Shown: positions 3,786 to 64,000, numbered from the stretch's first letter. The stretch: 64,000 nt of DNA from an uncultured Candidatus Saccharibacteria bacterium (GCA_964594735.1 CAZQMS010000006.1:13982-77981), one strand, 5' to 3'. Program-made: numbers and translations. Notes: generated from the sequence alone by a model not told the origin.

Positions 3786-4889
3786 ATGCCACCAGAAAAT
3801 TCACCCATGCAGAATCCCACCACAGTTGCGCAGCCTGTCGCTCAAGAGCACCCATCGCACCGTCCCCTTGTTATCGGGGTAGGGGTGTGCGCAGCGCTTC
3901 TCGGCCTCGCTATGCTCGCGTACCTGTGGCTCGGCGGGCGCGAGCCTGTGAGCGCAGGCCCGCTCCAGATAGGTATCGTGCAGAACGTACAGCTCCTCGA
4001 CGGAGCTGTCGAAGGGTTCAAACTTGGCATGACCGACCTTGGCTACGAGGAAGGCACCGATGTCGTCTATGAGTACTACAACGTCAACGGCAACGTCGAC
4101 GAAGCAAAGCGCGTCGCCCGGGAATTTGCAGAAGAGGGCAAAGACCTCATTCTCGCGGTCACGAGCACTGTCACGCCTGCGGTCTGGCAGACGCTCCAAG
4201 ATCTCGGCGTCGATATACCGATAGTCTTCACCAACGGCACGTCCTTCGACTACGACGGCTTTATCGACAGCTACCAATCATCGGGCAAAAACTTGACCGG
4301 CATCATCCCCGACGACTTCGACGTCACGATAAAGAAGCTCGAATTCCTCAAGCAGATTCAACCAGAGGCGAAACGCTTCGGCGTCTTCTACAGCAATGTC
4401 GGCCCCGGCGGCAAGCTCGTCGAGCGGCTGCAGGCGCAAAAAGATGCCCTGGGTCTCGATATGATTGCAGTCAAAATTGACTCTGTCGGTCCCGCAAGCC
4501 CGCCGGAACTTCAGGCGAAGGCGGATGCTGTGCAGAGGGGTGATATCGATGCCATCATGACGCTGCCGGATTCTGTGGTGAATTTCAGGGACAATCCGCT
4601 CATTCTCATCGCGCTCGGCAAGCGCATCGGGGCACCCGTGTACGCCCTCAATCACTCCATCGTGCAGCAGGGCGGCATTCTCGCGTACAACGAGGATCAC
4701 ATCGCGACAGGGAAGCAGGCTGCCGTGATGGCCAACAAAATACTCACCGGTACGCCCGCGATACAGATACCGATAGAGAAGTCCGGCAAGAACTTCCTCT
4801 CCGTAAACCTCAAAGCGGCCAAGGAGCTGGGGCTCACTGTCCCAGATTCGCTCATCTACAACGCCGACGAAGTGATACCAGCAGAATAG
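3786..4889 (+). CDS. ABC-type substrate-binding protein, PF04392-like, paralog 3
   Basis: QIGIVQNV...GYEEGTDVVYEYYNVNGN...IPIVFTNG...DVTIKKLEFLKQI; ends ...LIYNADEVIPAE as paralog 2 ends ...FNADQIIPAE. Confidence 0.65.
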   Translation: MPPENSPMQNPTTVAQPVAQEHPSHRPLVIGVGVCAALLGLAMLAYLWLGGREPVSAGPLQIGIVQNVQLLDGAVEGFKLGMTDLGYEEGTDVVYEYYNVNGNVDEAKRVAREFAEEGKDLILAVTSTVTPAVWQTLQDLGVDIPIVFTNGTSFDYDGFIDSYQSSGKNLTGIIPDDFDVTIKKLEFLKQIQPEAKRFGVFYSNVGPGGKLVERLQAQKDALGLDMIAVKIDSVGPASPPELQAKADAVQRGDIDAIMTLPDSVVNFRDNPLILIALGKRIGAPVYALNHSIVQQGGILAYNEDHIATGKQAAVMANKILTGTPAIQIPIEKSGKNFLSVNLKAAKELGLTVPDSLIYNADEVIPAE

Positions 4890-5901: not shown

Positions 5902-6216
5902 ATGACTGAAACCCATTTGACGCTCCTCATTGCAATATCCGTACCTTTCCTGGCAGTCGTTGTTAGCTGGATTGCACTCATGGTGGCAATGCACAAAACC
6001 ACTGGTGAGCTAAAGCACTGGTTGACGCCTGACAATCTTGTGAAAGGTATTGCCATTATATTTGTTATTACTGCAGCACTCGCTCTCGGTGTTCTACAAA
6101 TCCTAGAGGGAGACGTAATTGCTACAATCCTCAGTGGCATTATTGGCTATACTTTGGGCACTTCCTTCCTACCTCTGAAAACTAACCCCGACCCGAGTGC
6201 CTCAAAAAACTCGTAG
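5902..6216 (+). CDS. small polytopic membrane protein, island-borne
   Basis: 3 predicted TM helices; start 4 nt after previous stop. Confidence 0.45.
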   Translation: MTETHLTLLIAISVPFLAVVVSWIALMVAMHKTTGELKHWLTPDNLVKGIAIIFVITAALALGVLQILEGDVIATILSGIIGYTLGTSFLPLKTNPDPSASKNS

Positions 6217-7093: not shown

Positions 7094-7364
7094 AATGAAC
7101 GGCGAGTTAGCGGAAAAGTATCCACTATCTGACGAGCATATCGCTGAGCTTGCGGCGTTCTTTGCGCTGTTAGCGAAGTTCGATATGGAGGACAAACAAA
7201 GAGAGATGTCTCGACAACATGCTGACCATTGAGGCATGCCGTGCTCTCATACCGGACGGCGACAAACTTTCGGATGAGGAGATAGTTAAAATCCGCGAAT
7301 CACTATATGGCTTCGCGAAGCTAGCCCTTGACGTATATTTCAAGGAAAAAGGGACGGAGAAAAA

Positions 7365-26618: not shown

Positions 26619-26691
26619 AGCGGGGTGGAGCAGGAGTAGCTCGCCAGGCTCATAACCTGGAGGTCGCGGGTGCAATTCCCGCCCCCGCAAC
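26619..26691 (+). tRNA. tRNA-Met, initiator-like (CAU), no encoded CCA
   Basis: Near-identity to bacterial tRNA-fMet core (GCGGGGTGGAGCAG...GCTCATAACC...CCCCCGCAA), mismatched 1:72 pair; coordinates within 2 nt. Confidence 0.8.
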
Positions 26692-26700
26692 ACGATGGAG

Positions 26701-26729
26701 AAAAACGCCGCATCAAGCGGCGTTTTTCT
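26701..26729. terminator. terminator hairpin after tRNA-fMet
   Basis: AAAAACGCCGCATCAAGCGGCGTTTTTCTC. Confidence 0.7.
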
Positions 26730-26908
26730 CAGTCCGATAGAATCCCAAGCACGACTTCTGCGATGGTGAACGCGAGAAAAATGATGATTGCAACGATAAG
26801 CATTTTCCACTGGAGTGTCATCACGGCCCGGCCAGCGGCATAGAGGACGAAGACAAAGGCAGCAGGCCAGAAGAGGAACGAATTGATTCCCATGAGTCTA
26901 TTCCACAT
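26729..26908 (-). CDS. possible small 2-TM membrane protein (59 aa, below ORF-track cutoff)
   Basis: Manual translation MWNRLMGINSFLFWPAAFVFVLYAAG...IIIFLAFTIAEVVLGILSD. Confidence 0.25.
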   Translation of the reverse strand: MWNRLMGINSFLFWPAAFVFVLYAAGRAVMTLQWKMLIVAIIIFLAFTIAEVVLGILSD

Positions 26909-27022
26909 GAAAGGGAGTGTACTAGTCGTATATGCAAAAACAAGTTCGTTCCGCCAGGCGTCGGGGAGAGGCGCGAGCTGATATTGGCGGAGAAATATCC
27001 ATGGGGTATAGTTTTCCTCATC

Positions 27023-27096
27023 GTCGGGGTAGCTCAGTCGGTTAGAGCGAGCGTTTCATAAGCGCTAGGTCGTGGGTTCGATTCCCACCCCCGACA
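27023..27096 (+). tRNA. tRNA-Met/Ile2 (CAU), elongator type
   Basis: Acceptor GTCGGGG/CCCCGAC, anticodon loop TTCATAA, T-loop GTTCGATTC. Confidence 0.8.
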
Positions 27097-27141
27097 CTCG
27101 CAGGGCAGGGGAATATGCGCTATTCTCTCTGTGCTGCGCAT

Positions 27142-27215
27142 GCGGGTGTAGCTCAATTGGTTAGAGCACTCCCCTGTCACGGGAGAGGCTGCGGGTTCGA
27201 GTCCCGTCACTCGCG
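27142..27215 (+). tRNA. tRNA-Asp (GUC)
   Basis: Acceptor GCGGGTG/CACTCGC, anticodon loop CTGTCAC, T-loop GTTCGAGTC. Confidence 0.8.
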
Positions 27216-27271
27216 CAATCGCATAGGAAATGTTCTCAAGTGCAAGCATGGATGTTACTATCCATGCCACG

Positions 27272-27356
<85 letters not shown>

Positions 27357-27407
27357 ATTGTTCAACTCTAGACCTCACATCCATACTGCGCTTGGTATGA
27401 TGTTGAG

Positions 27408-27872
27408 ATGGTGAATTCGAGACGTCCGAGAAAGCCCTGTCGCAATTGTGGCAAAGAGCCCGCAAGCCATACGTATACATATTGCAGCAACCTATGCCAA
27501 CGTGAGCAAGAACACAAAATCTATATAAAAAAATGGAAACGAGGGGAAATATCTGGACTAAGTACCATAGGGACAGTTTCGTCTAATCTTAAAAGATACT
27601 TGCGGAATAAATTTGGCAATAAGTGCTGTCTGTGCGGGTGGGCAGTAGTGAATGAAAAGACTGGGCAGGTACCTTTGGTTGCCGATCATATCGATGGAAA
27701 CTGGAGAAACAATCTAGACACAAACTTGCGTCTACTGTGTCCGAATTGCGATGCCATCAGTCCCACGTTTGCGGGACTCAACAGAGGGAAAGGAAGAACA
27801 AATCGTGGAGTAAGTAATCGGGTCAGGGAAGGGGGTCTTCTTGCGAGAAGTAGAAAACGGCGCAGGACGTGA
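27408..27872 (+). CDS. HNH endonuclease (low-GC insertion in tRNA cluster)
   Basis: CRNCG...CSNLC and CLCGW...HIDGNWRNN...LLCPNCD HNH/zinc motifs; about 45% GC. Confidence 0.75.
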   Translation: MVNSRRPRKPCRNCGKEPASHTYTYCSNLCQREQEHKIYIKKWKRGEISGLSTIGTVSSNLKRYLRNKFGNKCCLCGWAVVNEKTGQVPLVADHIDGNWRNNLDTNLRLLCPNCDAISPTFAGLNRGKGRTNRGVSNRVREGGLLARSRKRRRT

Positions 27873-27893
27873 TATATTCTTACTCGCTCGTCT

Positions 27894-27966
27894 GCCGGAG
27901 TAGCTCAGTTGGTAGAGCAATGCTTTCGTAAAGCATAGGTCACCGGTTCAAATCCGGTCTCCGGCT
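27894..27966 (+). tRNA. tRNA-Thr (CGU)
   Basis: Acceptor GCCGGAG/CTCCGGC, anticodon loop TTCGTAA, T-loop GTTCAAATC. Confidence 0.8.
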
Positions 27967-27984
27967 CAAAGGTATACTTCTTCT

Positions 27985-54665: not shown

Positions 54666-55703
54666 TTGGACATCGTCTTCGACTTCTTCATCGGTATCGC
54701 GAAGGTGCTCGGTGCATTCGCACTGCTCGCCCTCGTTGTCATGTTTGTGATTCGCTTTGCGCGGAACACGTTCACTCTCGCGGGCGGCGCTCCGTACGGC
54801 GCGATTCCGTACATCTCAAGCAAGAACACAATTCTCGTGTTCAATCTCAGCGGTCCCGTCCTGACCGACCCGACGACCGTCAGCCCCTGGGCTCGGCGGT
54901 TCGCGTCCTTCGGCGAGGAACTGAAACTCGCGCTCATGGCTGCCGCGAACAACGACGCCATCAAGGGCGTTGTCGTGCGCTGCTCCACGCCGGGCGGCTC
55001 TCCCGTCGGGAGCCAGCTCATTGCTGAAGGCATCGAGGCATGCAAGGAGAAAAAGCCAGTCTTCGTGCACGTGACCGACATGTGCGCGTCCGGCGGCGTG
55101 TGGGCGCTCTGCGGCGCCACGCGGATCTTCGCCGCGCGCGACGCGATCGTCGGAAGCATTGGGGTGCGCGGTGCGTCACTCGTGCGATACAGCGGCGTGA
55201 CGGAGCTTGGGAGCGGCCTCCTCGGAGGCCACATCCGCGCGAAGAGCGTCACGGTCGAAACGATGCATCGGGGCAAGGGCAAGATCTTCGGAAGCCCCTT
55301 TGAGGCGGAAGACCCGGAGGTGCGCAAGCACTACGAGCATCACCTCGAAACGATGTACGGGCGCTTTCTTGAGCGCGTCGCATCGGCGCGCCGCACCTCC
55401 GTCGAGAAATTGCGTTCGCTTGGCGCTCTCATGTTCGAAGCGCCAGATGCAGTGCACTACGGCCTCATCGACGCGGTCGGGACCTACGAGGAAGCCAAGG
55501 TCGCGCTCGCCAAGGAGCTCGGCGTGCCGGTCCAGGAGTGTTTCTTCCTCAAGACGCGGAAGGTGGGGCGTTTCGGTCCCTCGCTTTCGCCCTCCGCGCT
55601 CCTCAGTGGTGGAGCGGGTTCGCACACCGCTATGCACGAGCTGCGTGCGGCGCTGCGGCAGGAGAGCGTCCTCACGGTGGCGCCAATGTTCCTGAGCGAG
55701 TAG
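54666..55703 (+). CDS. sppA: signal peptide peptidase SppA (S49, 36K type)
   Basis: TM anchor; catalytic Ser context TDMCASGGVWALCGA; Lys region. Confidence 0.8.
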   Translation: MDIVFDFFIGIAKVLGAFALLALVVMFVIRFARNTFTLAGGAPYGAIPYISSKNTILVFNLSGPVLTDPTTVSPWARRFASFGEELKLALMAAANNDAIKGVVVRCSTPGGSPVGSQLIAEGIEACKEKKPVFVHVTDMCASGGVWALCGATRIFAARDAIVGSIGVRGASLVRYSGVTELGSGLLGGHIRAKSVTVETMHRGKGKIFGSPFEAEDPEVRKHYEHHLETMYGRFLERVASARRTSVEKLRSLGALMFEAPDAVHYGLIDAVGTYEEAKVALAKELGVPVQECFFLKTRKVGRFGPSLSPSALLSGGAGSHTAMHELRAALRQESVLTVAPMFLSE

Positions 55704-55770: not shown

Positions 55771-56070
55771 ATGGGGCCTGTCTACAAAGTCAAAGGCAAG
55801 GTCTGGCTCTGGCCGGGGGAGATGGCGGCGTGGCACTTTGTACATGTCGACAAAAAGACATCGGACGCGATCAAGGCACGGCACACGGGGCCGCGTCGCG
55901 GTTTTGGGGCGGTGAAAGTACGTGTGACGATTGGGAAGACGAGCTGGAGCACCTCGATTTTTCCCGACAAAAAAAGCGGCACCTACCTTCTTCCGCTCAA
56001 AGCGGCGGTGCGCCGCGCCGAGGCGGTGGAGAGCGGCGACGAGATTCAATTTTCTCTTAGTGTGCAATAG
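55771..56070 (+). CDS. DUF1905-family protein
   Basis: 99 aa, VYKVKGKVWLWPGEMAAWHFVHV pattern. Confidence 0.5.
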   Translation: MGPVYKVKGKVWLWPGEMAAWHFVHVDKKTSDAIKARHTGPRRGFGAVKVRVTIGKTSWSTSIFPDKKSGTYLLPLKAAVRRAEAVESGDEIQFSLSVQ

Positions 56071-56133: not shown

Positions 56134-56706
56134 ATGATGTACACGGAAAGGATGCAGCGCGCGATTCGCTTCATGCTCAAGACACACGAGGTCTACCAGA
56201 AGCAGAAGCGCAAGGGCAAGGACATTCCGTACCTCGCTCATCCACTCACAGTGGGTCTTATCCTCGCGCGCGCCGGTGCTTCGGAAGCCGTGATTATTGC
56301 GGGGATTTTGCACGACACGATAGAAGACAGTACCGAAGAGAAGAAAGTGACGAGCGCGATGCTCGCAGAGCGCTTTGGTGCGAGTGTCGCGCGACTTGTG
56401 GAAAGTGTGACGGAAAAAATAAAGACAGGCTCGTGGGATGAGCGCAAGCAGGAAGCCCTCGAGCACATCGCGCACTTCTCGCATGATTCCGTACTCCTCA
56501 AGAGCGCCGATGTCATCGCCAACAATGCGGAGCTCCTGGAAGACCACGCGCTTTTGGGCGACGCGACATTCGAACGCTTCAATGCCTCGAAAGAGAAGAC
56601 ACTCGGTCACACGCAGCGAGTCATATCCGCGCTTCTCTCACAGTGGCCTGAAAGCCCACTGTCGTCGGATCTGGCGAATCTTACGCGGCTTTTATCAAGC
56701 ATATAA
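56134..56706 (+). CDS. HD-domain phosphohydrolase, RelA/SpoT-type ((p)ppGpp hydrolase-like)
   Basis: YLAHPLTVGLILA...ILHDTIEDS HD motif. Confidence 0.7.
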   Translation: MMYTERMQRAIRFMLKTHEVYQKQKRKGKDIPYLAHPLTVGLILARAGASEAVIIAGILHDTIEDSTEEKKVTSAMLAERFGASVARLVESVTEKIKTGSWDERKQEALEHIAHFSHDSVLLKSADVIANNAELLEDHALLGDATFERFNASKEKTLGHTQRVISALLSQWPESPLSSDLANLTRLLSSI

Positions 56707-56713
56707 AAACAAG

Positions 56714-56745
56714 CAGCCGCCCGGGAAAGCCCGGGCGGCTGGCTT
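56714..56745. terminator. bidirectional terminator
   Basis: CAGCCGCCCGGGAAAGCCCGGGCGGCTG. Confidence 0.7.
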
Positions 56746-56754
56746 GAGAGACTC

Positions 56755-56964
56755 TTATTTGCGAGCGAGCTTCATCGACGTAGCGGCGAGGTAGATTGCC
56801 GCGACACCGACGAGACCGTAGACAATGCGCGAGAGCATCGTCATGTCGCCGAAGAGCGTAGCGACGAGATCGAAATCGGCCGCCGCGACGAGGCCCCAGT
56901 TGAGGCCACCGACGATAACAAGCGCGATTGCGACCCAGTCGATGGTGCTAAGTGGATTCGACAT
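56755..56964 (-). CDS. DUF378-family small membrane protein
   Basis: GGLNWGLVAA hallmark, 69 aa, 2 TM. Confidence 0.7.
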   Translation of the reverse strand: MSNPLSTIDWVAIALVIVGGLNWGLVAAADFDLVATLFGDMTMLSRIVYGLVGVAAIYLAATSMKLARK

Positions 56965-57101
56965 AGGTTTCTTGGTGAGGGTAAAAAATACTTCTCGACC
57001 TTTTCATTAAAATCCTACCACGTCCTAAAAGCCCCAGTGTCCCCAAAAGGATGGCGAGGTGCATATCTCTTTCGCGACGTACTGTGCTCGTACCCTGTGG
57101 A

Positions 57102-57305
57102 ATCTATTCTAGTGTTTTGCCCTCCTTCGCATAAAGCTACGGACGGGCAGGCAAAAGACTGTAATAAGAAATCGGGGGATGGGATAGGGGTGAGGTGGGG
57201 GAATGGATGGATGGGGGTGGATGGGGAGGAGAATGGAGGGTGGCTGGGGAGACGAATGGGGGCGGCATCATGCCGAGTTCCCCAAAATCAAGATCCGTGG
57301 GATTC
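57102..57305 (+). repeat. repeat module copy A: hairpin (TAGTGTTTTGCC...GGCAAAAGACTG), purine-rich tract, junction motif GTTCCCCAAAATCAAGATCCGTGGGA
   Basis: Aligns along about 150 nt with copy B at 58347-58497. Confidence 0.7.
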
Positions 57306-57436
57306 TTGGTTGGGAGGGCTTTTACATGAGTGCCCGTCTGGGGGGCAGGTCTCGTATAACCGTGAAAAATAGCGTTTTTTCCACAGTTTTCACGATTATG
57401 ATTGCAATTAGCGTGAAAGCATGCTATACTTGAACT

Positions 57437-58330
57437 ATGGCTCGTACTCCGCACGTTTTTGGACAAATAAACTCGCTTCGAGAGCGCTACTACCGTGCAT
57501 TGCCGGGCAAAGAGTCGCTTATTCGAACACTCAACGAGGCGGAGATCCCCGAGCATGTCTACAACTCAAACGCGATCGAAAATAGTACTCTCACACTCGA
57601 AGAGACCGAAAAAATTCTTCTCCAGATCGACCTCGATCGCTTTGTAAGCGAGCGTGAGCTCTTTGAGGCAAAAAATCTTGCCCGCGTGATGGACTATATA
57701 GACAAAAAAGCCAAAGAAGTCGAGCTCTCCTTGCCGCTCATACTTTTTCTCCACCAAACACTCATAGCCAACATCCGCAACGAGATTGCCGGCCGCTTTC
57801 GCAAAGAAGGGGAGTGGGTGCGCGTGGGTGCGCACATCGGTGCGGATCCAAAAGACATAGAGCGCCTACTTACCGACATGGTTGCCACGTATCATGCAGA
57901 CGCCAGTGGTCATGTTGTTTCTCGCATAGCGCGCCTCCATCTTGTTTTCGAGGGTATCCATCCATTTTGCGACGGCAATGGTCGCATTGGCCGGGTGCTC
58001 AACAACTTCGCGCTTCTGCGCGAAGGATACGTGCCGATCAATATTGCCTTCGTAAACCGCGCGCGCTACTACGACGCGTTTAAAGAGTATGAGCAGAAAG
58101 GATCCACCAAGATAATGGAGGAATTGATCGGCCGAGCACTCACCAACAGTTACCACAAGCGCCTCGCGTACCTCGAGGGCAAAAATATTGTTACGCTCAA
58201 AGATTACGCAAAAAAGCACAAACTCTCCTACACCAACCTGCTCAACAAAGCGGGGCGCCAGACCATCCCTGCGTTTATGGAAAAAGGCGTCTGGAAAATC
58301 GCGGACGAGCCCACCCAGTTCGAAAAATGA
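57437..58330 (+). CDS. fic: Fic-family AMPylase (class II, intrinsic inhibitory motif)
   Basis: HPFCDGNGRIGR Fic motif; N-terminal SNAIEN matches (S/T)xxxE(G/N) inhibitory helix. Confidence 0.85.
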   Translation: MARTPHVFGQINSLRERYYRALPGKESLIRTLNEAEIPEHVYNSNAIENSTLTLEETEKILLQIDLDRFVSERELFEAKNLARVMDYIDKKAKEVELSLPLILFLHQTLIANIRNEIAGRFRKEGEWVRVGAHIGADPKDIERLLTDMVATYHADASGHVVSRIARLHLVFEGIHPFCDGNGRIGRVLNNFALLREGYVPINIAFVNRARYYDAFKEYEQKGSTKIMEELIGRALTNSYHKRLAYLEGKNIVTLKDYAKKHKLSYTNLLNKAGRQTIPAFMEKGVWKIADEPTQFEK

Positions 58331-58346
58331 AGATTTTGTGGGTCCG

Positions 58347-58497
58347 GATTCTATTTCAGTGTTTTGCCTGACCGGCCAGGGCAAAAGACTGTAATGAGGA
58401 TTGGGGGAATTGGGGAAAATTGGAAAAAAGGATTCGGAATGGGTGAGGACGGCTCGGCACCATGCCCAGTTCCCCAAAATGAAGAATTGTGGGAGCA
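58347..58497 (+). repeat. repeat module copy B: hairpin (CAGTGTTTTGCC...GGCAAAAGACTG), purine-rich tract, junction motif GTTCCCCAAAATGAAGAATTGTGGGA
   Basis: Homologous to copy A; bracketed by junction-motif copies at 58324-58341 and 58469-58494. Confidence 0.7.
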
Positions 58498-58504
58498 TTA
58501 GACC

Positions 58505-59047
58505 ATGTTTGGCGTGAGTGAAATGTTGCCGTTGTTTTTGTGGGCGCTAACGATCGCCGTCTTCGTCGCGGCTGTCGTGATGGCCGTGATACTTTTCATC
58601 GTGCGCCGCCGGGAGACGCCGCTCAGCTACACACGAAAGGAATCCATATTTGATATACACACTGAGCGCGAACTTTTTGACACATTGCAGGAGTTGTACG
58701 GAGACCGGTACTTCGTTTTCCCTCAAGTCCATTACAGTCATCTCTTGCGGCCGAGTAAAGAACTTTCGTATCGCGACAGGCTTGTTCTGAGAAACAAGGT
58801 AGACAGGAAATCTGCAGACTTCGTACTGTGCGAAAAGAGTGACGTAAGCGTCAGGCTTGTTATCGAGCTGGACGGCAGCAGCCATGACCGACCAGACAGG
58901 CAGGAGCGAGACACATTCATAAATTCGATTGCAAACACTTCCAATTTGAACCTGCTTCGTATGCCGACGAATCGCATGGATAGAGCGTCAGTACTAGAGC
59001 AAGTAGACGCCAAGTTGGCGCAGATTCCCGCAGGTTCCCCAAAATGA
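58505..59047 (+). CDS. DUF2726-like (NERD/PD-(D/E)xK-fold) protein with N-terminal TM
   Basis: YFVFPQVHYSHLL...KSADFVLCEKSD..VRLVIELDGSSH pattern. Confidence 0.65.
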   Translation: MFGVSEMLPLFLWALTIAVFVAAVVMAVILFIVRRRETPLSYTRKESIFDIHTERELFDTLQELYGDRYFVFPQVHYSHLLRPSKELSYRDRLVLRNKVDRKSADFVLCEKSDVSVRLVIELDGSSHDRPDRQERDTFINSIANTSNLNLLRMPTNRMDRASVLEQVDAKLAQIPAGSPK

Positions 59048-59060
59048 AGATTCGTGGGAT
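59033..59060 (+). repeat. junction motif copy C (GGTTCCCCAAAATGAAGATTCGTGGGAT) overlapping DUF2726-like stop codon
   Basis: TGA stop lies inside the motif. Confidence 0.65.
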
Positions 59061-59071
59061 GATTTTCACGC

Positions 59072-59794
59072 ATGCACAAATTGTCGCGCGCGACGATAGA
59101 GAAGTTGGGATATTACGTCTACATCCTCTCTGATCCGCGCACGAACAAGGCTTTTTACGTCGGCAAGGGTAGGGGCAATCGCATCAATTCGCACCTGCTC
59201 GGTGCTCTCGAGGAAAATACCAAAGAGACTCTGAAGATCCGCACTATTCGCGAGATTCAGGCTGCCGGCCTGGAAGTCGGTCTCACCATCTTGCGCCACG
59301 GCCTTTCTGAAAGGGAGGCGTTTGAAGTAGAAAGTGCGATTATCGATGTCTTTGGGTTGGAGAATCTTACCAACATCGTCACGGGTCACTATGCGCATGT
59401 GCGCGGGAAAATGAGCGTGCGTGATATCGAGATTGAATACCAAGCCAAACCGGCCGTCTTCGACGAGCCTGTTTTGCTTATCCGAATCAACAGACTATAC
59501 AGGCACGACATGCCCGCTGAAGAATTGTACGAAGCAACACGCAAGTATTGGCGAATCCGATTGCGAGATGATATGCCTCGTGTCGTCTGCGCAGTGTATG
59601 CGGGCATTATTCGCGAAGTCTACCTTGCGCAGACGTGGATACGCCCCAACGGCTTGAAGGGAAAAATTGAAGGCCGCATCGCTTTCGAGGGCGCGATCGC
59701 GCCGCCAGGAATCCGCGAGAAGTATCTGAACAAATCCGTCGTGCACGTTCTCAAGCAGGGGAGCCAGAATCCTATTAAGTACGTCGGGCGCTGA
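59072..59794 (+). CDS. GIY-YIG nuclease-domain protein with C-terminal extension
   Basis: GYYVYILSD...KAFYVGKGRG GIY-YIG motifs; about 240 aa. Confidence 0.7.
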   Translation: MHKLSRATIEKLGYYVYILSDPRTNKAFYVGKGRGNRINSHLLGALEENTKETLKIRTIREIQAAGLEVGLTILRHGLSEREAFEVESAIIDVFGLENLTNIVTGHYAHVRGKMSVRDIEIEYQAKPAVFDEPVLLIRINRLYRHDMPAEELYEATRKYWRIRLRDDMPRVVCAVYAGIIREVYLAQTWIRPNGLKGKIEGRIAFEGAIAPPGIREKYLNKSVVHVLKQGSQNPIKYVGR

Positions 59795-59888
59795 CTCCCA
59801 ACGGCTCAGACCCCCCCCGTCTGAGTCGTGGGATGGTGCCGCGCCTCCCATTTCCCAAAGCTCGGATTTGTGATCTAATCCTCCCGTT

Positions 59889-60773
59889 ATGAAGGAGGTG
59901 CCGAAATATCACGAAACGTTCATACCTATCCTTAAAACCCTTGCAGAGATGGGTGATGTCTCCACGGCTGCCTTGAAAGTCCTGGTCGCAAAGAAGTTTT
60001 ATGGGGATCTGCCCAAGGACCTGCTCGAACAAAGGACGAAGTCGGGACATATCCTTATTCTCAATAGGATCGGCTGGGGTAAGGCGTACCTGAAACAGGC
60101 GGGGATGATAGAGCAACCGGAGCGAGCGCTTGTGCGCATCACTGACAAAGGCCGAGAAGTTCTCAGAAAGGGCAAGCTCTCGCTCAAAGAGATCAAGTCA
60201 GACCCGGAGTTTCAGGCGCATCAAAAGACAGAGAGTGGCACCAAAGTGTCTCATGACCTCGACGAGACAGCTACGCCGCAGGATCAGATAGATGCCGGAT
60301 TCAATAAGATAGAGAATCAGGTCAAGACAGAGTTGCTCGCGAAGCTCAAGACGATAGACCCATTTTACTTTCAGAAAGTTATCCTGACGCTCCTCGAAAA
60401 GATGGGATATGGCGACTTGGTGGAGACACCGAAAACAGGGGACGGCGGTATCGACGGCATAATCACACAGGACAAGCTTGGGCTCGATAAGATCTACATC
60501 CAGGCGAAGCGCTTTGCAGACAGCAAGGTGCGTGAGTCGGACATTCGCGATTTCATCGGTGCGATGAGCCGCGATACCAACAAAGGCATCTTCGTCACGA
60601 CGTCAAAATTTGACCAAAAAGCACTTAGCAAGGCCAAAGACGCGAGTCACAAGATCATCACGGTCGATGGCGACCAGCTCGCCGACCTCATGTACACGTA
60701 CGGCGTCGGCGTCCAGGTGACCGACACCTACGAGGTCAAACAACTCGACGAGGACTTCTTCGAGCAGGCCTAG
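59889..60773 (+). CDS. mrr: Mrr-type restriction endonuclease (Mrr_N wHTH plus Mrr_cat)
   Basis: C-terminal GDGGIDGIITQD...IYIQAKRF PD-(D/E)xK; N-terminal winged helix. Confidence 0.8.
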   Translation: MKEVPKYHETFIPILKTLAEMGDVSTAALKVLVAKKFYGDLPKDLLEQRTKSGHILILNRIGWGKAYLKQAGMIEQPERALVRITDKGREVLRKGKLSLKEIKSDPEFQAHQKTESGTKVSHDLDETATPQDQIDAGFNKIENQVKTELLAKLKTIDPFYFQKVILTLLEKMGYGDLVETPKTGDGGIDGIITQDKLGLDKIYIQAKRFADSKVRESDIRDFIGAMSRDTNKGIFVTTSKFDQKALSKAKDASHKIITVDGDQLADLMYTYGVGVQVTDTYEVKQLDEDFFEQA

Positions 60774-60827
60774 TGCGCCGCAAGGCCAGCGCGGCGCGCA
60801 CTGGGTTATACTGGATCAAAATGCTTT

Positions 60828-62579
60828 ATGGTCAAGAAAATTGATTACGAAAAATGGTCGAAAGAGGAGTTGATAAAGGAGATCCAGCGAATCAAGGAAA
60901 CGACCTACGGCCTTGTGTGGCATAGGGATTTACCCGAGGAGAAAATCGACGTCCTCATAAATCCGGATGCTAGGACACCGAGCGAGATGTTCCCCAACGA
61001 AATGGCGGGCAAGCCTTTCCCCGTGCTGAAAGAGGTGAAATCAAAGGCGGTAGAAACCGACGCAAAAAAGCCAGTAAATATTCTCATTGAGGGCGATAAC
61101 TATCACTCGCTCGCCGTGCTCAACTTTACGCACCAAGAAGCGATTGATGTGATTTACATTGACCCGCCCTACAATACTGGAAACAATGACTTTATTTATA
61201 ACGATTTACAAGCACGCGTCGTCCAAAAAGATGATCCGTATCGGCACAGCAAGTGGCTTGCTTTCATGGAAAAGAGGTTGAAGCTTTCAAAAGGGCTACT
61301 CAAGAAAACCGGCGTGATTTTCATAAGTATTGATGACAACGAACAAGCTCCTCTAAAAATGCTCTGCGATGAAATTTTCGGAGAGAAAAATTTTATAGGA
61401 ATGTTTAAGTGGAATAGAGTCGCGAAAGCACCAAGTCTTTCGTATTCTATGAGAACGAAATATGAGTATATTCTCGCGTATTATAAAGAAACACGAATAG
61501 AGTTGTTTGGTAAAAGTTCATACAATACACAAGGACCTTTATGGCACTTGCCGAATAAAAGAGTCCAACTAAACTTTCCGGCTGGCAGTTTGAAAGTGAA
61601 GCAGACATTTAAGAAGGGTGACTACGGCGGATCGTACAAGGTGGAATTGCTTGACGATATTATTGAAGAAGGTGGTTTCAACAAAAATGACGTGAGAATC
61701 CTTGCCCATTCAGCGTGGGGTCAAGCAAGAATTAATCAATACTTAAAAGACGGGCTTACTTTTGAAATAAAGAAGACTCCGGCAACCGTATATACGACCC
61801 TAAACAGCGAGGGTAATTTCATTGCTCCCTCTGATTTAATAACGAAGGAAGAGTGTGGCGTTGAGACAAATACAGACGCAAGTGATGCATTGAAAGCCAT
61901 GGGGATTCCATTTGATGCTCCGAAGCCCGTGTCTCTAATAAAGTATCTGGCAAACATGGCCACGCACGACAACAAGTCGGCAGTTATACTCGACTTTTTT
62001 GCCGGTTCTGGGACTACGGGACATGCTGTTTTGGAATTGAACAAAGAGGATGGCGGCAATCGAAAGTTTATTCTGTGTACAAATAATGAGGAGCTTGATA
62101 ACAACGGAGGCAAAATCAAGCATAGGATTTCTACAGACATATGCTACCCGCGCGTGTCAAAAGTCATCAAAGGATACAAAACTACAGACGGGCAAAAAAT
62201 CGATGGACTAGCCGGCAATCTCAAATACTACACAACCGCATTTGTCGAAGCCGAGCCGTCGGACAGGAATAAACGCAAACTGGTGGACGAGTCGACCGAG
62301 ATGCTTTGCATCAAGGAGGCGGCGTTTGAATTGGTAAAGGAGGGCAAGGACTTCAAGATTTTCAAAAATACTGACAAGTATCTCGGCATCGTATTCCACG
62401 AGGACGCCATCGATTCGTACAAAGAGGCCATCAAGAAAATGGACGGGCATTTCAACACCTACGTCTTTTCGCTCGGCGACGAGCCTCACGAAAAAGAATT
62501 TGCTGATGTAAAAAGCAAAGTAACGCTCTGCGCTATCCCCGAAGTGATACTGAAAGTGTATCGGGAGATATTCAAATAA
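60828..62579 (+). CDS. mod: Type III restriction-modification methyltransferase (Mod, N6-adenine)
   Basis: Motif IV DPPY (IYIDPPYNTGNNDF) before motif I FFAGSGTTGHAV; 583 aa; about 42% GC. Confidence 0.85.
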   Translation: MVKKIDYEKWSKEELIKEIQRIKETTYGLVWHRDLPEEKIDVLINPDARTPSEMFPNEMAGKPFPVLKEVKSKAVETDAKKPVNILIEGDNYHSLAVLNFTHQEAIDVIYIDPPYNTGNNDFIYNDLQARVVQKDDPYRHSKWLAFMEKRLKLSKGLLKKTGVIFISIDDNEQAPLKMLCDEIFGEKNFIGMFKWNRVAKAPSLSYSMRTKYEYILAYYKETRIELFGKSSYNTQGPLWHLPNKRVQLNFPAGSLKVKQTFKKGDYGGSYKVELLDDIIEEGGFNKNDVRILAHSAWGQARINQYLKDGLTFEIKKTPATVYTTLNSEGNFIAPSDLITKEECGVETNTDASDALKAMGIPFDAPKPVSLIKYLANMATHDNKSAVILDFFAGSGTTGHAVLELNKEDGGNRKFILCTNNEELDNNGGKIKHRISTDICYPRVSKVIKGYKTTDGQKIDGLAGNLKYYTTAFVEAEPSDRNKRKLVDESTEMLCIKEAAFELVKEGKDFKIFKNTDKYLGIVFHEDAIDSYKEAIKKMDGHFNTYVFSLGDEPHEKEFADVKSKVTLCAIPEVILKVYREIFK

Positions 62580-62583
62580 AGAT

Positions 62584-64000
62584 ATGGCATGGATTCAATT
62601 CAAGGACTACCAAGAGACAGCCGTCGTTGACCTAAAACGCGAGTCAAACAAATTGCTCGATGCGGATGGCAACAAGGTGCTGATTTTCAAAGCGCCCACC
62701 GGCTCGGGCAAGACGTTGATGGTGGCCGAGTTTCTGAAGCGGCTTATCGACTCGCGTATCGATGGCAAGCATTTCTCTTTCGTATGGATAGCCGTCAATA
62801 AACTACACGACCAGAGCCGAAATAATCTAAAGAAATACTACGACCAGTACGGCGTGGGGCTAAAATGCTCCTATTTCTCCGATCTGCAAGAACGGAAAAT
62901 CGCCGAGAATGAAATCTTGTTTCTCAACTGGGCCAGTATCAACAAGGGTGAGAAAGGCATCATCACTCGCGCGAACGAGCGCGATAACAATCTAACGTCG
63001 GTCGTTCAACGCACGAAAGACGAGGGACGCATCGTCGTGCTCATCATCGATGAAAGTCATCATACAGCAAAGGGCGAAGAATCGTTGAAGGTTATTGAAG
63101 GAATCGCTCCAAAACTAACAATTGAAGTGTCCGCAACGCCTCAACTGAGAAGTCTCAAGGGTGTTGAAGTCGAACTGAAAGATGTAAGAAACGAGGGCAT
63201 GATAAAGAAAGAAATCGTCATAAACCCCGGCTTCGAGCACTATGTCATCGATAAGAAAAAGAACGATAAAACGGCAGACGAACTCGTGCTCGAAAGCGCG
63301 CTCAAGCGTCGTGCGGCGCTAAAAAAGAAACTCGAAGCCGAGGGGTCAAGTGTAAACCCACTACTGCTGATACAAATCCCCGATGCAAAAGCTGGACTTG
63401 CCGACAAGAAGGATGATGTAGTAAAAACGCTTGGTAAGTACGGCATAACGACCGAAGGCGGCAGACTCGCCATATACCTTTCCGAAAAAGACAATAAAAT
63501 AAACCTTGAGAATATTGAGAAGGACGAGAACGAAGTCGAGGTGATGATTTTCAAGCAAGCAATCGCGCTCGGCTGGGATTGTCCACGTGCGTCGCTTCTC
63601 GTCTTGTTCCGGCAGTGGCGGGAAGAAAACATGACATTTTCTATCCAAACGCTCGGACGCATTATGCGTATGCCGGAGCAGAAACACTACGACGACAACG
63701 AATTGAATCTCGGCTATGTTTTTACGAGTCTGCCGGATATCAAGGTCGCCGAGGATATTTCCCGCGAGTACATCACGGTATACGAGGGCAAACGGCGGGA
63801 CGACTACAAGGATATAAACCTCGAATCATGGCACTCAAAGCGGTTCCGTGAGGAAACGCGGCTCTCGCCGGATTTTGATCCTATTTTCCTCGATGCGGCA
63901 AAAGCGCTCAAAACAATGTCGCGCATAAAAAAAGACCACAGTATCGTCGACACGAAGCTCGTAGCGAGCGGCCGTATCTACGACATCGATCAGGAAGCAA
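62584..64000 (+). CDS. res: Type III restriction enzyme Res subunit (helicase domain), 3' end truncated by window
   Basis: Walker A KAPTGSGKT, DEAH-like IIDESHH; starts 5 nt after mod stop; not in ORF track because there is no stop codon in the window. Confidence 0.8.
   Translation, partial: MAWIQFKDYQETAVVDLKRESNKLLDADGNKVLIFKAPTGSGKTLMVAEFLKRLIDSRIDGKHFSFVWIAVNKLHDQSRNNLKKYYDQYGVGLKCSYFSDLQERKIAENEILFLNWASINKGEKGIITRANERDNNLTSVVQRTKDEGRIVVLIIDESHHTAKGEESLKVIEGIAPKLTIEVSATPQLRSLKGVEVELKDVRNEGMIKKEIVINPGFEHYVIDKKKNDKTADELVLESALKRRAALKKKLEAEGSSVNPLLLIQIPDAKAGLADKKDDVVKTLGKYGITTEGGRLAIYLSEKDNKINLENIEKDENEVEVMIFKQAIALGWDCPRASLLVLFRQWREENMTFSIQTLGRIMRMPEQKHYDDNELNLGYVFTSLPDIKVAEDISREYITVYEGKRRDDYKDINLESWHSKRFREETRLSPDFDPIFLDAAKALKTMSRIKKDHSIVDTKLVASGRIYDIDQEA

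Follow-up and report, generated by a model that had tools for sequence, protein, structure and literature searches.

Promoter-early stem-loop (PeSL) mobile regulatory cassettes of T4-type phages mediate insertions and deletions of the kind reported below (Arbiol et al. 2010, PMC2839356; Comeau et al. 2014, PMC4122927). In restriction-modification (R-M) systems, the C-protein genes are leaderless, with a weak -10 element and a fixed distance of ~17-18 nt between site and ATG (Sorokin et al. 2009, PMC2632904). We analysed a short repeated element in 64,000 nt (64 kb) of DNA from an uncultured Candidatus Saccharibacteria bacterium (GCA_964594735.1, CAZQMS010000006.1:13982-77981), hereafter the window. 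The initial annotation had described a junction motif of 20-26 nt, recurring six times between 57040 and 59880 around four stand-alone defence or toxin genes, and had proposed either integron-type recombination sites or a shared regulatory signal. The regulatory alternative turned out to be the better supported one. The motif is probably a self-contained promoter for leaderless or near-leaderless mRNAs, judging from its -35 to -5 geometry, its occurrence once per transcription unit and its conservation beyond that of its cargo. The best analogue of the module in which it lies seems to be the PeSL cassette, and the regulatory analogue the C-box control of R-M genes.

The 26-mer of the initial annotation, GTTCCCCAAAATGAAGATTCGTGGGA, was scanned with at most two mismatches across the window and across shuffled sequence. 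It occurred at 57277-57302, 58469-58494 and 59034-59059, nowhere else in the 64 kb, and 0 times in the shuffles. The 26-mer is real, but the full element extends over ~31 nt (TTCCCC-AAAATGAAGATYYGTGGGATGATTT). The family was searched by exact-pattern scans with patterns fixing 20 of the 31 positions, followed by a relaxed rescan, which gave 41 non-redundant copies in ~22 Patescibacteria loci (denoted by L numbers). The motif-bearing metagenome-assembled genomes (MAGs) are labelled Paceibacterota, Kaiserbacteria, Patescibacteria group and Saccharibacteria, and further copies lie on metagenome contigs. Five copies are arrayed in L010 and L027, three in L041 and L037, and pairs elsewhere. The full consensus was missing from the two matches outside the candidate phyla radiation (CPR) and from all matches in the viral collection. 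We rejected a phage origin because the viral matches represent one unrelated phage clade without the full motif. The members of that clade (L013-L021, L030 and L031, from IMG/VR and metagenomes) are 92-96% identical to each other and have only the 23-nt search pattern in common with the family. No published description of the motif was found in the full-text literature, in line with the first impression that neither the motif nor the arrangement is a described system.

Information content climbs sharply at motif position 0 and drops past position 30, with random flanks on both sides. The spacer is strongly conserved (AAAATGAAGATYY / AAAATGAAGA). Positions 18-22 read T (63%), G, T, G and G; position 23 is G and position 24 is A in 40 of the 41 copies each, and position 28 is T in all of them. 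The motif has the orientation of the downstream gene in every copy, and the ATG lies 6-9 nt past GATGAT in 21 of the 33 copies with a called open reading frame (ORF), the mode being 8 nt. A genome-wide dispersed repeat, such as a repetitive extragenic palindrome, a miniature inverted-repeat transposable element (MITE) or an uptake sequence, could lie at gene boundaries by accident; it would likewise be short, intergenic and repeated, and MITE-like GC-rich palindromic inserts do occur in boxes neighbouring the motif. The single orientation relative to the gene and the fixed ATG distance speak against this idea, as does the conservation of the motif between genomes whose coding DNA no longer aligns. 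Moreover, the remaining 57 kb of the window lack the motif, which refutes an abundant repeat unrelated to gene boundaries for the window and leaves a dispersed repeat extremely improbable altogether.

The genes behind the motif copies are all different, and restriction or nuclease defence functions dominate among them. They comprise Mrr (twice), DpnI, Tsp45I, an Eco57I-like enzyme, type I and type III methyltransferases, NYN (three times), DUF2726 (twice), an SLFN/DUF2075 helicase, Endonuc_Holl, GIY-YIG, a MazG-like protein and DndB. A single motif stands ahead of the hsdM-led three-gene unit of L009, and likewise ahead of the three-gene type III unit of L012. The internal genes of both units are stop/start-coupled; the motif marks each transcription unit once and not every gene boundary. 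Because the motif-flanked DUF2726 proteins of the window and L009 are only 34% identical, while their flanking motifs are at least about 80% identical, the motif appears to be kept by selection and not by recent co-transfer.

The copies inside the window were evaluated with a profile (R1) of 40 copies, whose training set holds the three strong window copies and not the one over the Fic stop (Table 1). Five of the six copies first reported were retained in some form: three are strong, one at the Fic stop is diverged and one upstream of Mrr is decayed, whereas the copy near 57040 was undetected by the profile and is doubtful as a decayed 5' half of the motif. The Fic-stop copy matches in 25 of 29 positions over 58314-58342 when read by eye (CCCAGTTCGAAAAATGAAGATTTTGTGGG against CCCAGTTCCCCAAAATGAAGAATTGTGGG). 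It lacks the GATGAT part and is directly followed by the second box copy, a motif-then-box junction that is also present in L027 and in L028/L037. The copy upstream of Mrr (59851-59880, TTTCCCAAAGCTCGGATTTGTG...) was not significant by profile (E=6.3). It was accepted as a decayed family member because it is identical in 21 of 22 positions to the gene-proximal subtype copy of L023 (TTTCCCAAAGCTCTGATTTGTGGGATGATTTG; TTTCCCAAAGCTCTGATTTGTG) and shares the family geometry. A 3'-half fragment at 59823-59838 gave a profile match at 59826-59836 that is not significant alone (E=3.2). A further weak match, AAAATAAAGA..CTCGTGGGATGA at 56416-56441, lies inside the HD-domain gene (E=0.71) and is probably due to chance. 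The ATG of DUF2726 is found 6 nt past the GAGCAT hexamer of the copy at 58470, and that of GIY-YIG 8 nt past the GATGAT of the copy at 59035, which is identical to the L008 copy in all 32 positions with no homology in the flanks. Counted from the GTGGGA of the 26-mer, the distances to the ATG are 10 nt (DUF2726), 12 nt (GIY-YIG) and ~12 nt (Mrr), in agreement with the 10-15 nt originally given.

The genome itself offers a framework for this geometry. TAnnnT is most frequent exactly 6 nt ahead of the ATG, where it occurs in 12 of the 58 window genes and in 19 of the 143 genes from related loci; the background is 0-2 per position. The extended pattern TGnTAnnnT, followed by 5-9 nt and ATG, has 12 matches in the window, ~10 of them at real gene starts including those of HD and Fic. 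Shine-Dalgarno (SD)-like signal is present in the genome but modest, and the operon-internal genes of the window are mostly stop/start-overlapped. Many genes of this genome thus appear to start leaderless from extended -10 promoters. Promoters of this kind reportedly characterize the 'group C' genomes of GeneMarkS-2 (Actinobacteria, Deinococcus), which have TRTGn and a -10 hexamer 6-8 nt before the start, and the housekeeping genes here are alike. In those promoters only the hexamers are conserved, whereas the motif conserves ~26 contiguous positions including the spacer and a G at -12.

TRTGn, at -17..-13, is the extended -10 consensus. With GATGAT of the motif set at -12..-7, TTCCCC comes to lie at -35..-30, separated by a 17-nt spacer, and the conserved block ends at -5. 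TGTGG falls in the TRTGn slot, and the hexamer carries A-11 and T-7, so that the motif has the features of an extended -10 promoter. The 3' block TGGGATGAT differs from the housekeeping sequence TGGTATGAT (window 27393) solely by G for T at -12, and TGGGAnnAT with a following ATG is found at gene starts of the island only. The ~31-nt motif would be the promoter/operator core of a portable gene-start module, placed 6-9 nt before the ATG. Stand-alone genes that are not stop/start-coupled could not depend on translation of read-through transcripts in a leaderless genome and would each need a promoter abutting the ATG, and the motif would recur at successive gene boundaries for this reason.

Alternatively, the motif could act in RNA, as a 5' leader or intercistronic signal of read-through transcripts, as the target of a trans-acting antisense RNA or an RNA-binding protein, or as a processing site that makes translatable 5'-terminal AUGs. 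Contiguous, structure-free conservation over ~26 nt would be expected of base-pairing to a trans RNA, uncoupled internal genes with little SD-like signal need some translation device, and in several loci a box with promoter-like hexamers 50-200 nt upstream could transcribe the motif. However, neither strand of the window or of any locus was found to carry a complementary copy of the motif. Searches of Rfam, at gathering thresholds over the entire window and at E<=1 over 56900-59950, gave no match in the island. The conserved block falls on the -35 to -5 region of a promoter whose TRTGn and -10 part is almost the housekeeping one at 27393, and many copies lie directly behind a terminator-like hairpin. 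We therefore regard an RNA-level function as rather unlikely. Many copies have a GC-rich palindrome or hairpin directly in front of them (window CGGCAYCATGCC; L003, L004, L005, L009, L010 and L027); these structures are not universal, and those of the window have no T-runs. Coding of a leader peptide or of protein N-termini by the motif was rejected, because its ATG is out of frame with GIY-YIG and two copies read ATC at this place. An SD function of GGGATGA was discarded on our own reasoning that ~13 nt from GGG to ATG is too long. A LexA/SOS box was likewise rejected, as the motif holds no GAAC-N4-GTTC-type repeat; LexA-domain proteins account for 3 of the 119 ORFs near the motif, and the idea retains a low probability.

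Two of the window copies form part of a longer composite repeat, u1 (57033-57309) and u2 (58314-58501), in which a 5' part of the motif, a palindromic box split by GC-rich sequence, a G-rich tract, a short GC palindrome and the motif follow one another. The layout of tract, palindrome and motif in u1 is repeated in u2, L012, L007, L010 and L027. The tract-palindrome segment of u2 (58396..58469) shows 90% identity to L012 over 110 nt and 96% identity to L007 over 57 nt. In L005, L007, L028 and L035, the box is a perfect ~30-nt palindrome (TATTCTAGTATTTTGCAAAATACTAGAATA) located ~15-20 nt ahead of the ATG of a conserved helix-turn-helix (HTH) gene, whose product of 88-92 aa is a winged helix of the ArsR/MarR type (HTH_5, HTH_20, HTH_27). 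A second copy of the palindrome overlaps the last codons of the HTH gene (...ILVFCKKL*), ahead of the following gene. The HTH protein is 68-89% identical in amino acid sequence across eight loci; its gene usually lies just downstream of DUF1905 and heads several of the variable arrays. The window has no such gene and retains just the two boxes disrupted by GC-rich insertions. In several genomes, such hairpin-forming insertions, 13-65 nt long, sit exactly at the centre of the box palindrome, between TTTTGC and GCAAAA. The insert of u1 is present again in L024, 29 nt long, 96.5% identical and reversed with respect to the box, which suggests a tiny mobile or palindrome-centre-targeting element. 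The box palindrome retains a conserved G-G/C-C mismatch by our own reading, for which reason an RNA stem was rejected in favour of a DNA site. A structured non-coding RNA in u1 and u2 was not compelling either, with folding z values of +0.17 and -1.54. Between box and motif, purine-rich or G-rich (GGGGA/GGAAT-like) tracts span ~10 to ~100 nt. In L028, L037 and L005, the tract codes for the Gly/Glu/Asp/Lys-rich tail of a transmembrane ORF of 37-41 aa, and no convincing ORF was found in the G-rich tracts of the window.

The same 30-250 nt module in front of unrelated genes would serve as a substrate for homologous recombination, which would delete, insert or swap units of promoter and gene. The outcome would be a cassette-like, integrase-free variable island beside conserved genes (DUF1905, HD). 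Apart from the u2 module, which L012 and L007 also contain, the window island is homologous in DNA to the other loci only at the motif. Among 14 motif pairs with related flanks, nine are related in the upstream flank only, three in the downstream flank only, and two, from the same strain, in both. L007, from a MAG whose DUF1905 gene is 84.6% identical to that of the window, reads flank A, motif (6968), NYN gene, motif (7711), flank B, where the window has flank A, one chimeric motif and flank B. The upstream flank and the 5' end of this chimeric copy at 57278 match L007 6968, and its 3' end together with the next ~35 nt (to 57338) matches L007 7711. Similarly, L037 has an extra unit of motif and RhuM/Fic compared with L028, which carries DpnI behind the shared segment. 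The presence or absence of individual units, as expected of the cassette-like array first proposed, was thus borne out by the NYN unit of L007, the extra unit of L037 and the one-sided homology of 12 of the 14 pairs. Because the L037 unit is bounded by duplicated G-rich and flank sequence, with breakpoints outside the motif, the exchange would use the whole module, as expected for homologous recombination.

Some further observations concern these junctions. The NYN gene of L007 (6985-7565) has an in-frame stop after 17 codons, and its Pfam match starts only with the ORF at 7097; it could be a pseudogene or reflect an error in the assembly. In L005, ~55 nt of the 3' end of DUF1905 (6060-6113) are duplicated just upstream of a motif (7121-7175), 1 kb downstream of the gene, which resembles a scar left by single-crossover (Campbell-type) integration of the HTH-YdeI segment. 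The Logan contigs L001 and L002 (SRR15237806) correspond to window positions ~57126-58479 and 58456-64893. They break in the u1 box and in the u2 motif, although the repeats of the window do not reach the length of k=31, a hint that the sample contains further sequences that carry the module and continue differently, as a population-level heterogeneity of the junctions.

The one-sided flank homology and the variable presence of units could also arise if the motif were the core site of a site-specific recombinase encoded elsewhere (attC-like, CALIN-like, from clusters of attC sites lacking integron-integrases, or similar to Xer/dif modules) and the units moved as circles. Direct repeats bound the gene units, the chimeric junction falls inside the motif, and the motif contains an imperfect inverted repeat, TCCCCAAAAT-GAAG-ATTYGTGGGA. 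Contiguous conservation over ~26 nt also recalls dif-type sites. The inverted repeat, however, shows no covariation: pairing (76.9%) equals the shuffled mean (76.9%) with one compensatory cell, and copies of the CTAGGC type break it without compensation. A hairpin, cruciform or terminator was rejected on the same ground. The GTTRRRY/RYYYAAC core is absent, as GTTCCCC does not fit GTTRRRY. Neither the fixed distance of 6-9 nt to the ATG nor the single copy per operon would be explained by a recombination site, and the L028/L037 breakpoints in the G-rich tract and flank agree with an exchange driven by homology along a longer module. The 25 most frequent of the 86 Pfam families matched by 119 ORFs near the motif include no integrase, resolvase or transposase, and neither a tyrosine nor a serine recombinase was detected when the window and 23 loci were screened for crude signatures, in agreement with the earlier remark that no integrase is visible in the window. 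Nor did a recombinase appear beyond the window, which ends 4 kb past the array: L002 extends it by 0.9 kb that holds only the end of res. The idea of att repeats derived from a tRNA or tmRNA was rejected, since the tRNA search of the window found no tRNA near the island. A site-specific recombinase is hence improbable in our estimation.

The comparison with integrons leads in the same direction. As in integron and CALIN arrays, mostly single-gene, co-oriented units with accessory or toxin-like cargo alternate with a recurring site and vary in presence. In contrast, no IntI was found within the scope of the Pfam census and the signature screen. The motif lies 5' of the gene and has promoter features; integron cassettes mostly lack a promoter and have attC 3' of the ORF. 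It is conserved in sequence, whereas attC is conserved in folded structure with an R''/R' core, and its distance to the ATG is fixed while that from attC to the next start varies. The proposal of integron-type sites was therefore abandoned.

The two copies reported over stop codons were confirmed. The last codons of Fic and its TGA (58328-58330) lie inside the diverged copy, which bears the CCCAG flank typical of the module, and the TGA of DUF2726 (59045-59047) lies inside the copy at 59035, within AAAATGAAG. The DUF2726 homologue of L009 stops 5 nt ahead of its motif, and the window protein runs nine codons further. Upstream ORFs truncated or abutted by recombination would read on to the TGA of the motif. 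We interpret the stops as by-products of module-mediated joins and genome compaction and not as a coupling signal, because by our own reasoning the distances from stop to next ATG (at least 25 nt) are too long for termination-reinitiation.

Several points weigh against a recombining promoter module. Promoter activity is deduced from geometry only. The base at -12 is G and not the canonical T, the hexamer-to-ATG mode is 8 nt as against 6 nt for housekeeping promoters, and contacts of RNA polymerase alone do not explain the near-invariant spacer. The conservation of the motif is partly ascertained, as most copies were found by exact patterns over 20 of the 31 positions, and secondary copies independent of the search are more bipartite, TTYCCCAAA-N5-GATYYGTGGGATGATTT. 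No gene starts directly behind the copies at window 57278 and 58319, L007 7711 and L027 6877 (oriented coordinate). The recombinase screens covered at most 8-14 kb per locus, and the indels come from comparisons of genomes ~15% diverged, in which the events are old and the mechanism is not readable.

Since the spacer and the G at -12 are invariant and the gap to the ATG exceeds the housekeeping mode by 2 nt, we suggest that a dedicated factor, be it an activator, a repressor or a sigma factor, reads the site in addition. Under such a factor, toxic nuclease and defence genes would be expressed in a co-ordinated way and probably within tight limits. Taken further, the motif could be a mere operator for a shared repressor or activator, with the true promoters elsewhere, for instance in the upstream box, and its fixed distance to the ATG would then stem from a roadblock or from the geometry of the regulator. 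The spacer and the 5' block are indeed conserved beyond the needs of RNA polymerase, the arrays of eight loci begin with an HTH gene of the ArsR type accompanied by palindromic boxes, and C-box systems show comparable constraints from site to ATG. Yet the window copy at 59035, L009 2132 (oriented), L003 and L008 have neither a box nor another promoter-like sequence in the interval from the preceding stop or terminator to the ATG, and the HTH palindrome is unrelated in sequence to the motif. A site serving as an operator alone therefore seems quite unlikely to us, and we retain the promoter, possibly read by an additional factor.

The HTH protein may be the controller of the downstream toxic genes of the island, a candidacy based on analogy with C-protein/C-box circuits. 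As with C.PvuII and C.AhdI, toxic nuclease genes follow a conserved site whose distance to the start codon is short and fixed, the -10 element is weak and thought to need a bound regulator, and the transcripts are leaderless, as predicted here. In L005, L007, L028 and L035, moreover, a small HTH gene with a palindrome ~15-20 nt before its own ATG heads the group. The C protein, however, is of the Xre type and is cotranscribed with the restriction endonuclease gene, whereas the HTH here is a winged helix of the ArsR/MarR type. The box is separate from the motif, which precedes many unrelated genes and not one C-R operon, and the window has disrupted boxes and no HTH gene.

The resemblance to PeSLs is closer. 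In both cases, a repeated composite regulatory element stands directly upstream of variable accessory genes in hyperplastic regions. Indels leave one chimeric element where a relative has element, gene and element, and each unit brings its own promoter, a predicted one in the island. The mechanism proposed for both is homologous recombination without a dedicated recombinase. In silico, the likeness extends to a predicted promoter consensus, TTCCCC-17-GATGAT with TGTGG, and to a different gene behind each copy. The differences are that the host here is a Patescibacteria chromosome and the cargo consists of defence genes, whereas PeSLs carry phage ORFans; that the predicted extended -10 promoter abuts a leaderless ATG here, whereas PeSLs carry an SD; and that the core is conserved across distinct lineages with a non-canonical -10 (G-12), whereas PeSLs are conserved within one phage pair.

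The features of the island, its surroundings and the related loci are listed in Table 1. The gene identities assigned earlier were borne out by Pfam searches of the called ORFs. Mrr is the final motif-associated gene of the array, and the type III R-M operon behind it has an ordinary TATACT promoter without the motif. The canonical promoter of Fic is the sole sigma-70 consensus match within 56500-61000. The presence of tRNAs and housekeeping genes places the window in a chromosomal context; five tRNA genes (Met, Met, Asp, Thr, Thr) lie within 1.4 kb at 26619-27967, unrelated to the motif.

Table 1. Coordinates of the island, its neighbours and related features (window positions unless a locus is given).
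Feature	Coordinates	Strand	Remarks
SppA-like peptidase gene	54666-55703		Pfam; housekeeping side, before the island
DUF1905 gene	55771-56070		Pfam; housekeeping side
HD-domain protein gene	56134-56706		Pfam; housekeeping side
DUF378 gene	56755-56964	-	Pfam
Putative 5' half of motif copy, CCCAGTGTCCCCAAAAGGATGG...	57033..57060	+	Island left edge; resembles CCCAGTTCCCCAAAATGAAG in 5' half
Box copy 1	57103..57165	+	Halves TCTATTCTAGTGTTTTGC and GCAAAAGACTGTAAT; operator-like palindrome; 30-nt GC-rich insertion 57121-57150
G-rich/GGA-rich tract, variable length	57166..57277	+	Ends in short palindrome CGGCATCATGCCGAG (57263-57277)
Motif copy TTCCCCAAAATCAAGATCCGTGGGATTCTTGG	57278..57309	+	Profile E=3e-8 (in training set); chimeric
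Fic own canonical promoter	57402..57430	+	TTGCAA, 17 nt, TATACT, 6 nt, ATG
Fic/DOC family gene	57437..58330	+	Pfam PF02661, E=7.5e-18
Diverged motif copy, CCCAG then TTCGAAAAATGAAGATTTTGTGGG	58314..58345	+	Over Fic stop; profile E=0.012 (outside training set)
Box copy 2	58350..58395	+	Split by 13-nt GC-rich insertion 58368-58380
G-rich tract and palindrome CGGCACCATGCCCAG	58396..58469	+	
Motif copy TTCCCCAAAATGAAGAATTGTGGGAGCATTAG	58470..58501	+	Profile E=2.7e-8 (in training set)
DUF2726 (nuclease-like) gene	58505..59047	+	Pfam PF10881, E=1.3e-25
Consensus motif copy TTCCCCAAAATGAAGATTCGTGGGATGATTTT	59035..59066	+	Profile E=2e-11 (in training set)
LEM-3-like GIY-YIG nuclease gene	59072..59794	+	Pfam PF22945, E=4.9e-19
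Stem-loop GGCTCAGAC-C7-GTCTGAGTC	59803..59838	+	Overlaps motif 3'-half fragment GAGTCGTGGGATGGTG
Subtype-2 motif copy TTTCCCAAAGCTCGGATTTGTGATCTAATCC	59851..59882	+	3' part decayed; upstream of Mrr ATG 59889
Mrr-type (type IV) restriction endonuclease gene	59889..60773	+	Pfam Mrr_cat E=9e-32, Mrr_N E=8.5e-19
Type III R-M operon	60828..64000	+	mod 60828-62579; res from 62584, past window end
ArsR/MarR-type HTH gene	L005 6169-6447; L007 6664-6930; L028 2867-3142; L035 385-660 and 2514-2789; L027 7442-7699; L022 768-1043		
Box-centre GC-rich insertions	Window 57121-57150, 58368-58380; L024 3836-3864; L041 (oriented) ~4535-4556		
Purine/G-rich tracts	Window 57166-57262, 58396-58454; L027, L012, L010; L028 3279-3398; L037 285-410; L005 5689-5802		
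Examples of predicted TGnTAnnnT extended -10 promoters	Window 10781, 22116, 27393, 45478, 47034, 56119, 57422		

CPR bacteria are largely uncultured, and their promoters, their regulation and the turnover of their defence islands are almost uncharted. Tentatively, and as a possibility that we rate below an even chance, we propose that some Patescibacteria have an integrase-free 'plug-and-play' system for defence genes. A 31-nt promoter/operator, read by a dedicated and conserved factor that might involve the ArsR-type HTH and its box, would give incoming nuclease or R-M genes co-ordinate leaderless expression at once, and the motif would also be the homology anchor for swapping naturally transformed DNA into a fixed chromosomal hotspot. 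The junction motif over stop codons would be explained without invoking a new recombination system. The 31-nt element offers a searchable handle for defence and accessory genes, including the uncharacterised ones at L008 38-409 and L010 4796-5440, as well as a concrete candidate regulon and cis-element for biochemical work. The island would be a cellular example of the promoter-anchored, recombinase-free gene shuffling that has so far been documented mainly in T4-type phages. If the proposal holds true, these bacteria would possess the functional equivalent of an integrase-free integron, together with a defence regulon common to several lineages.

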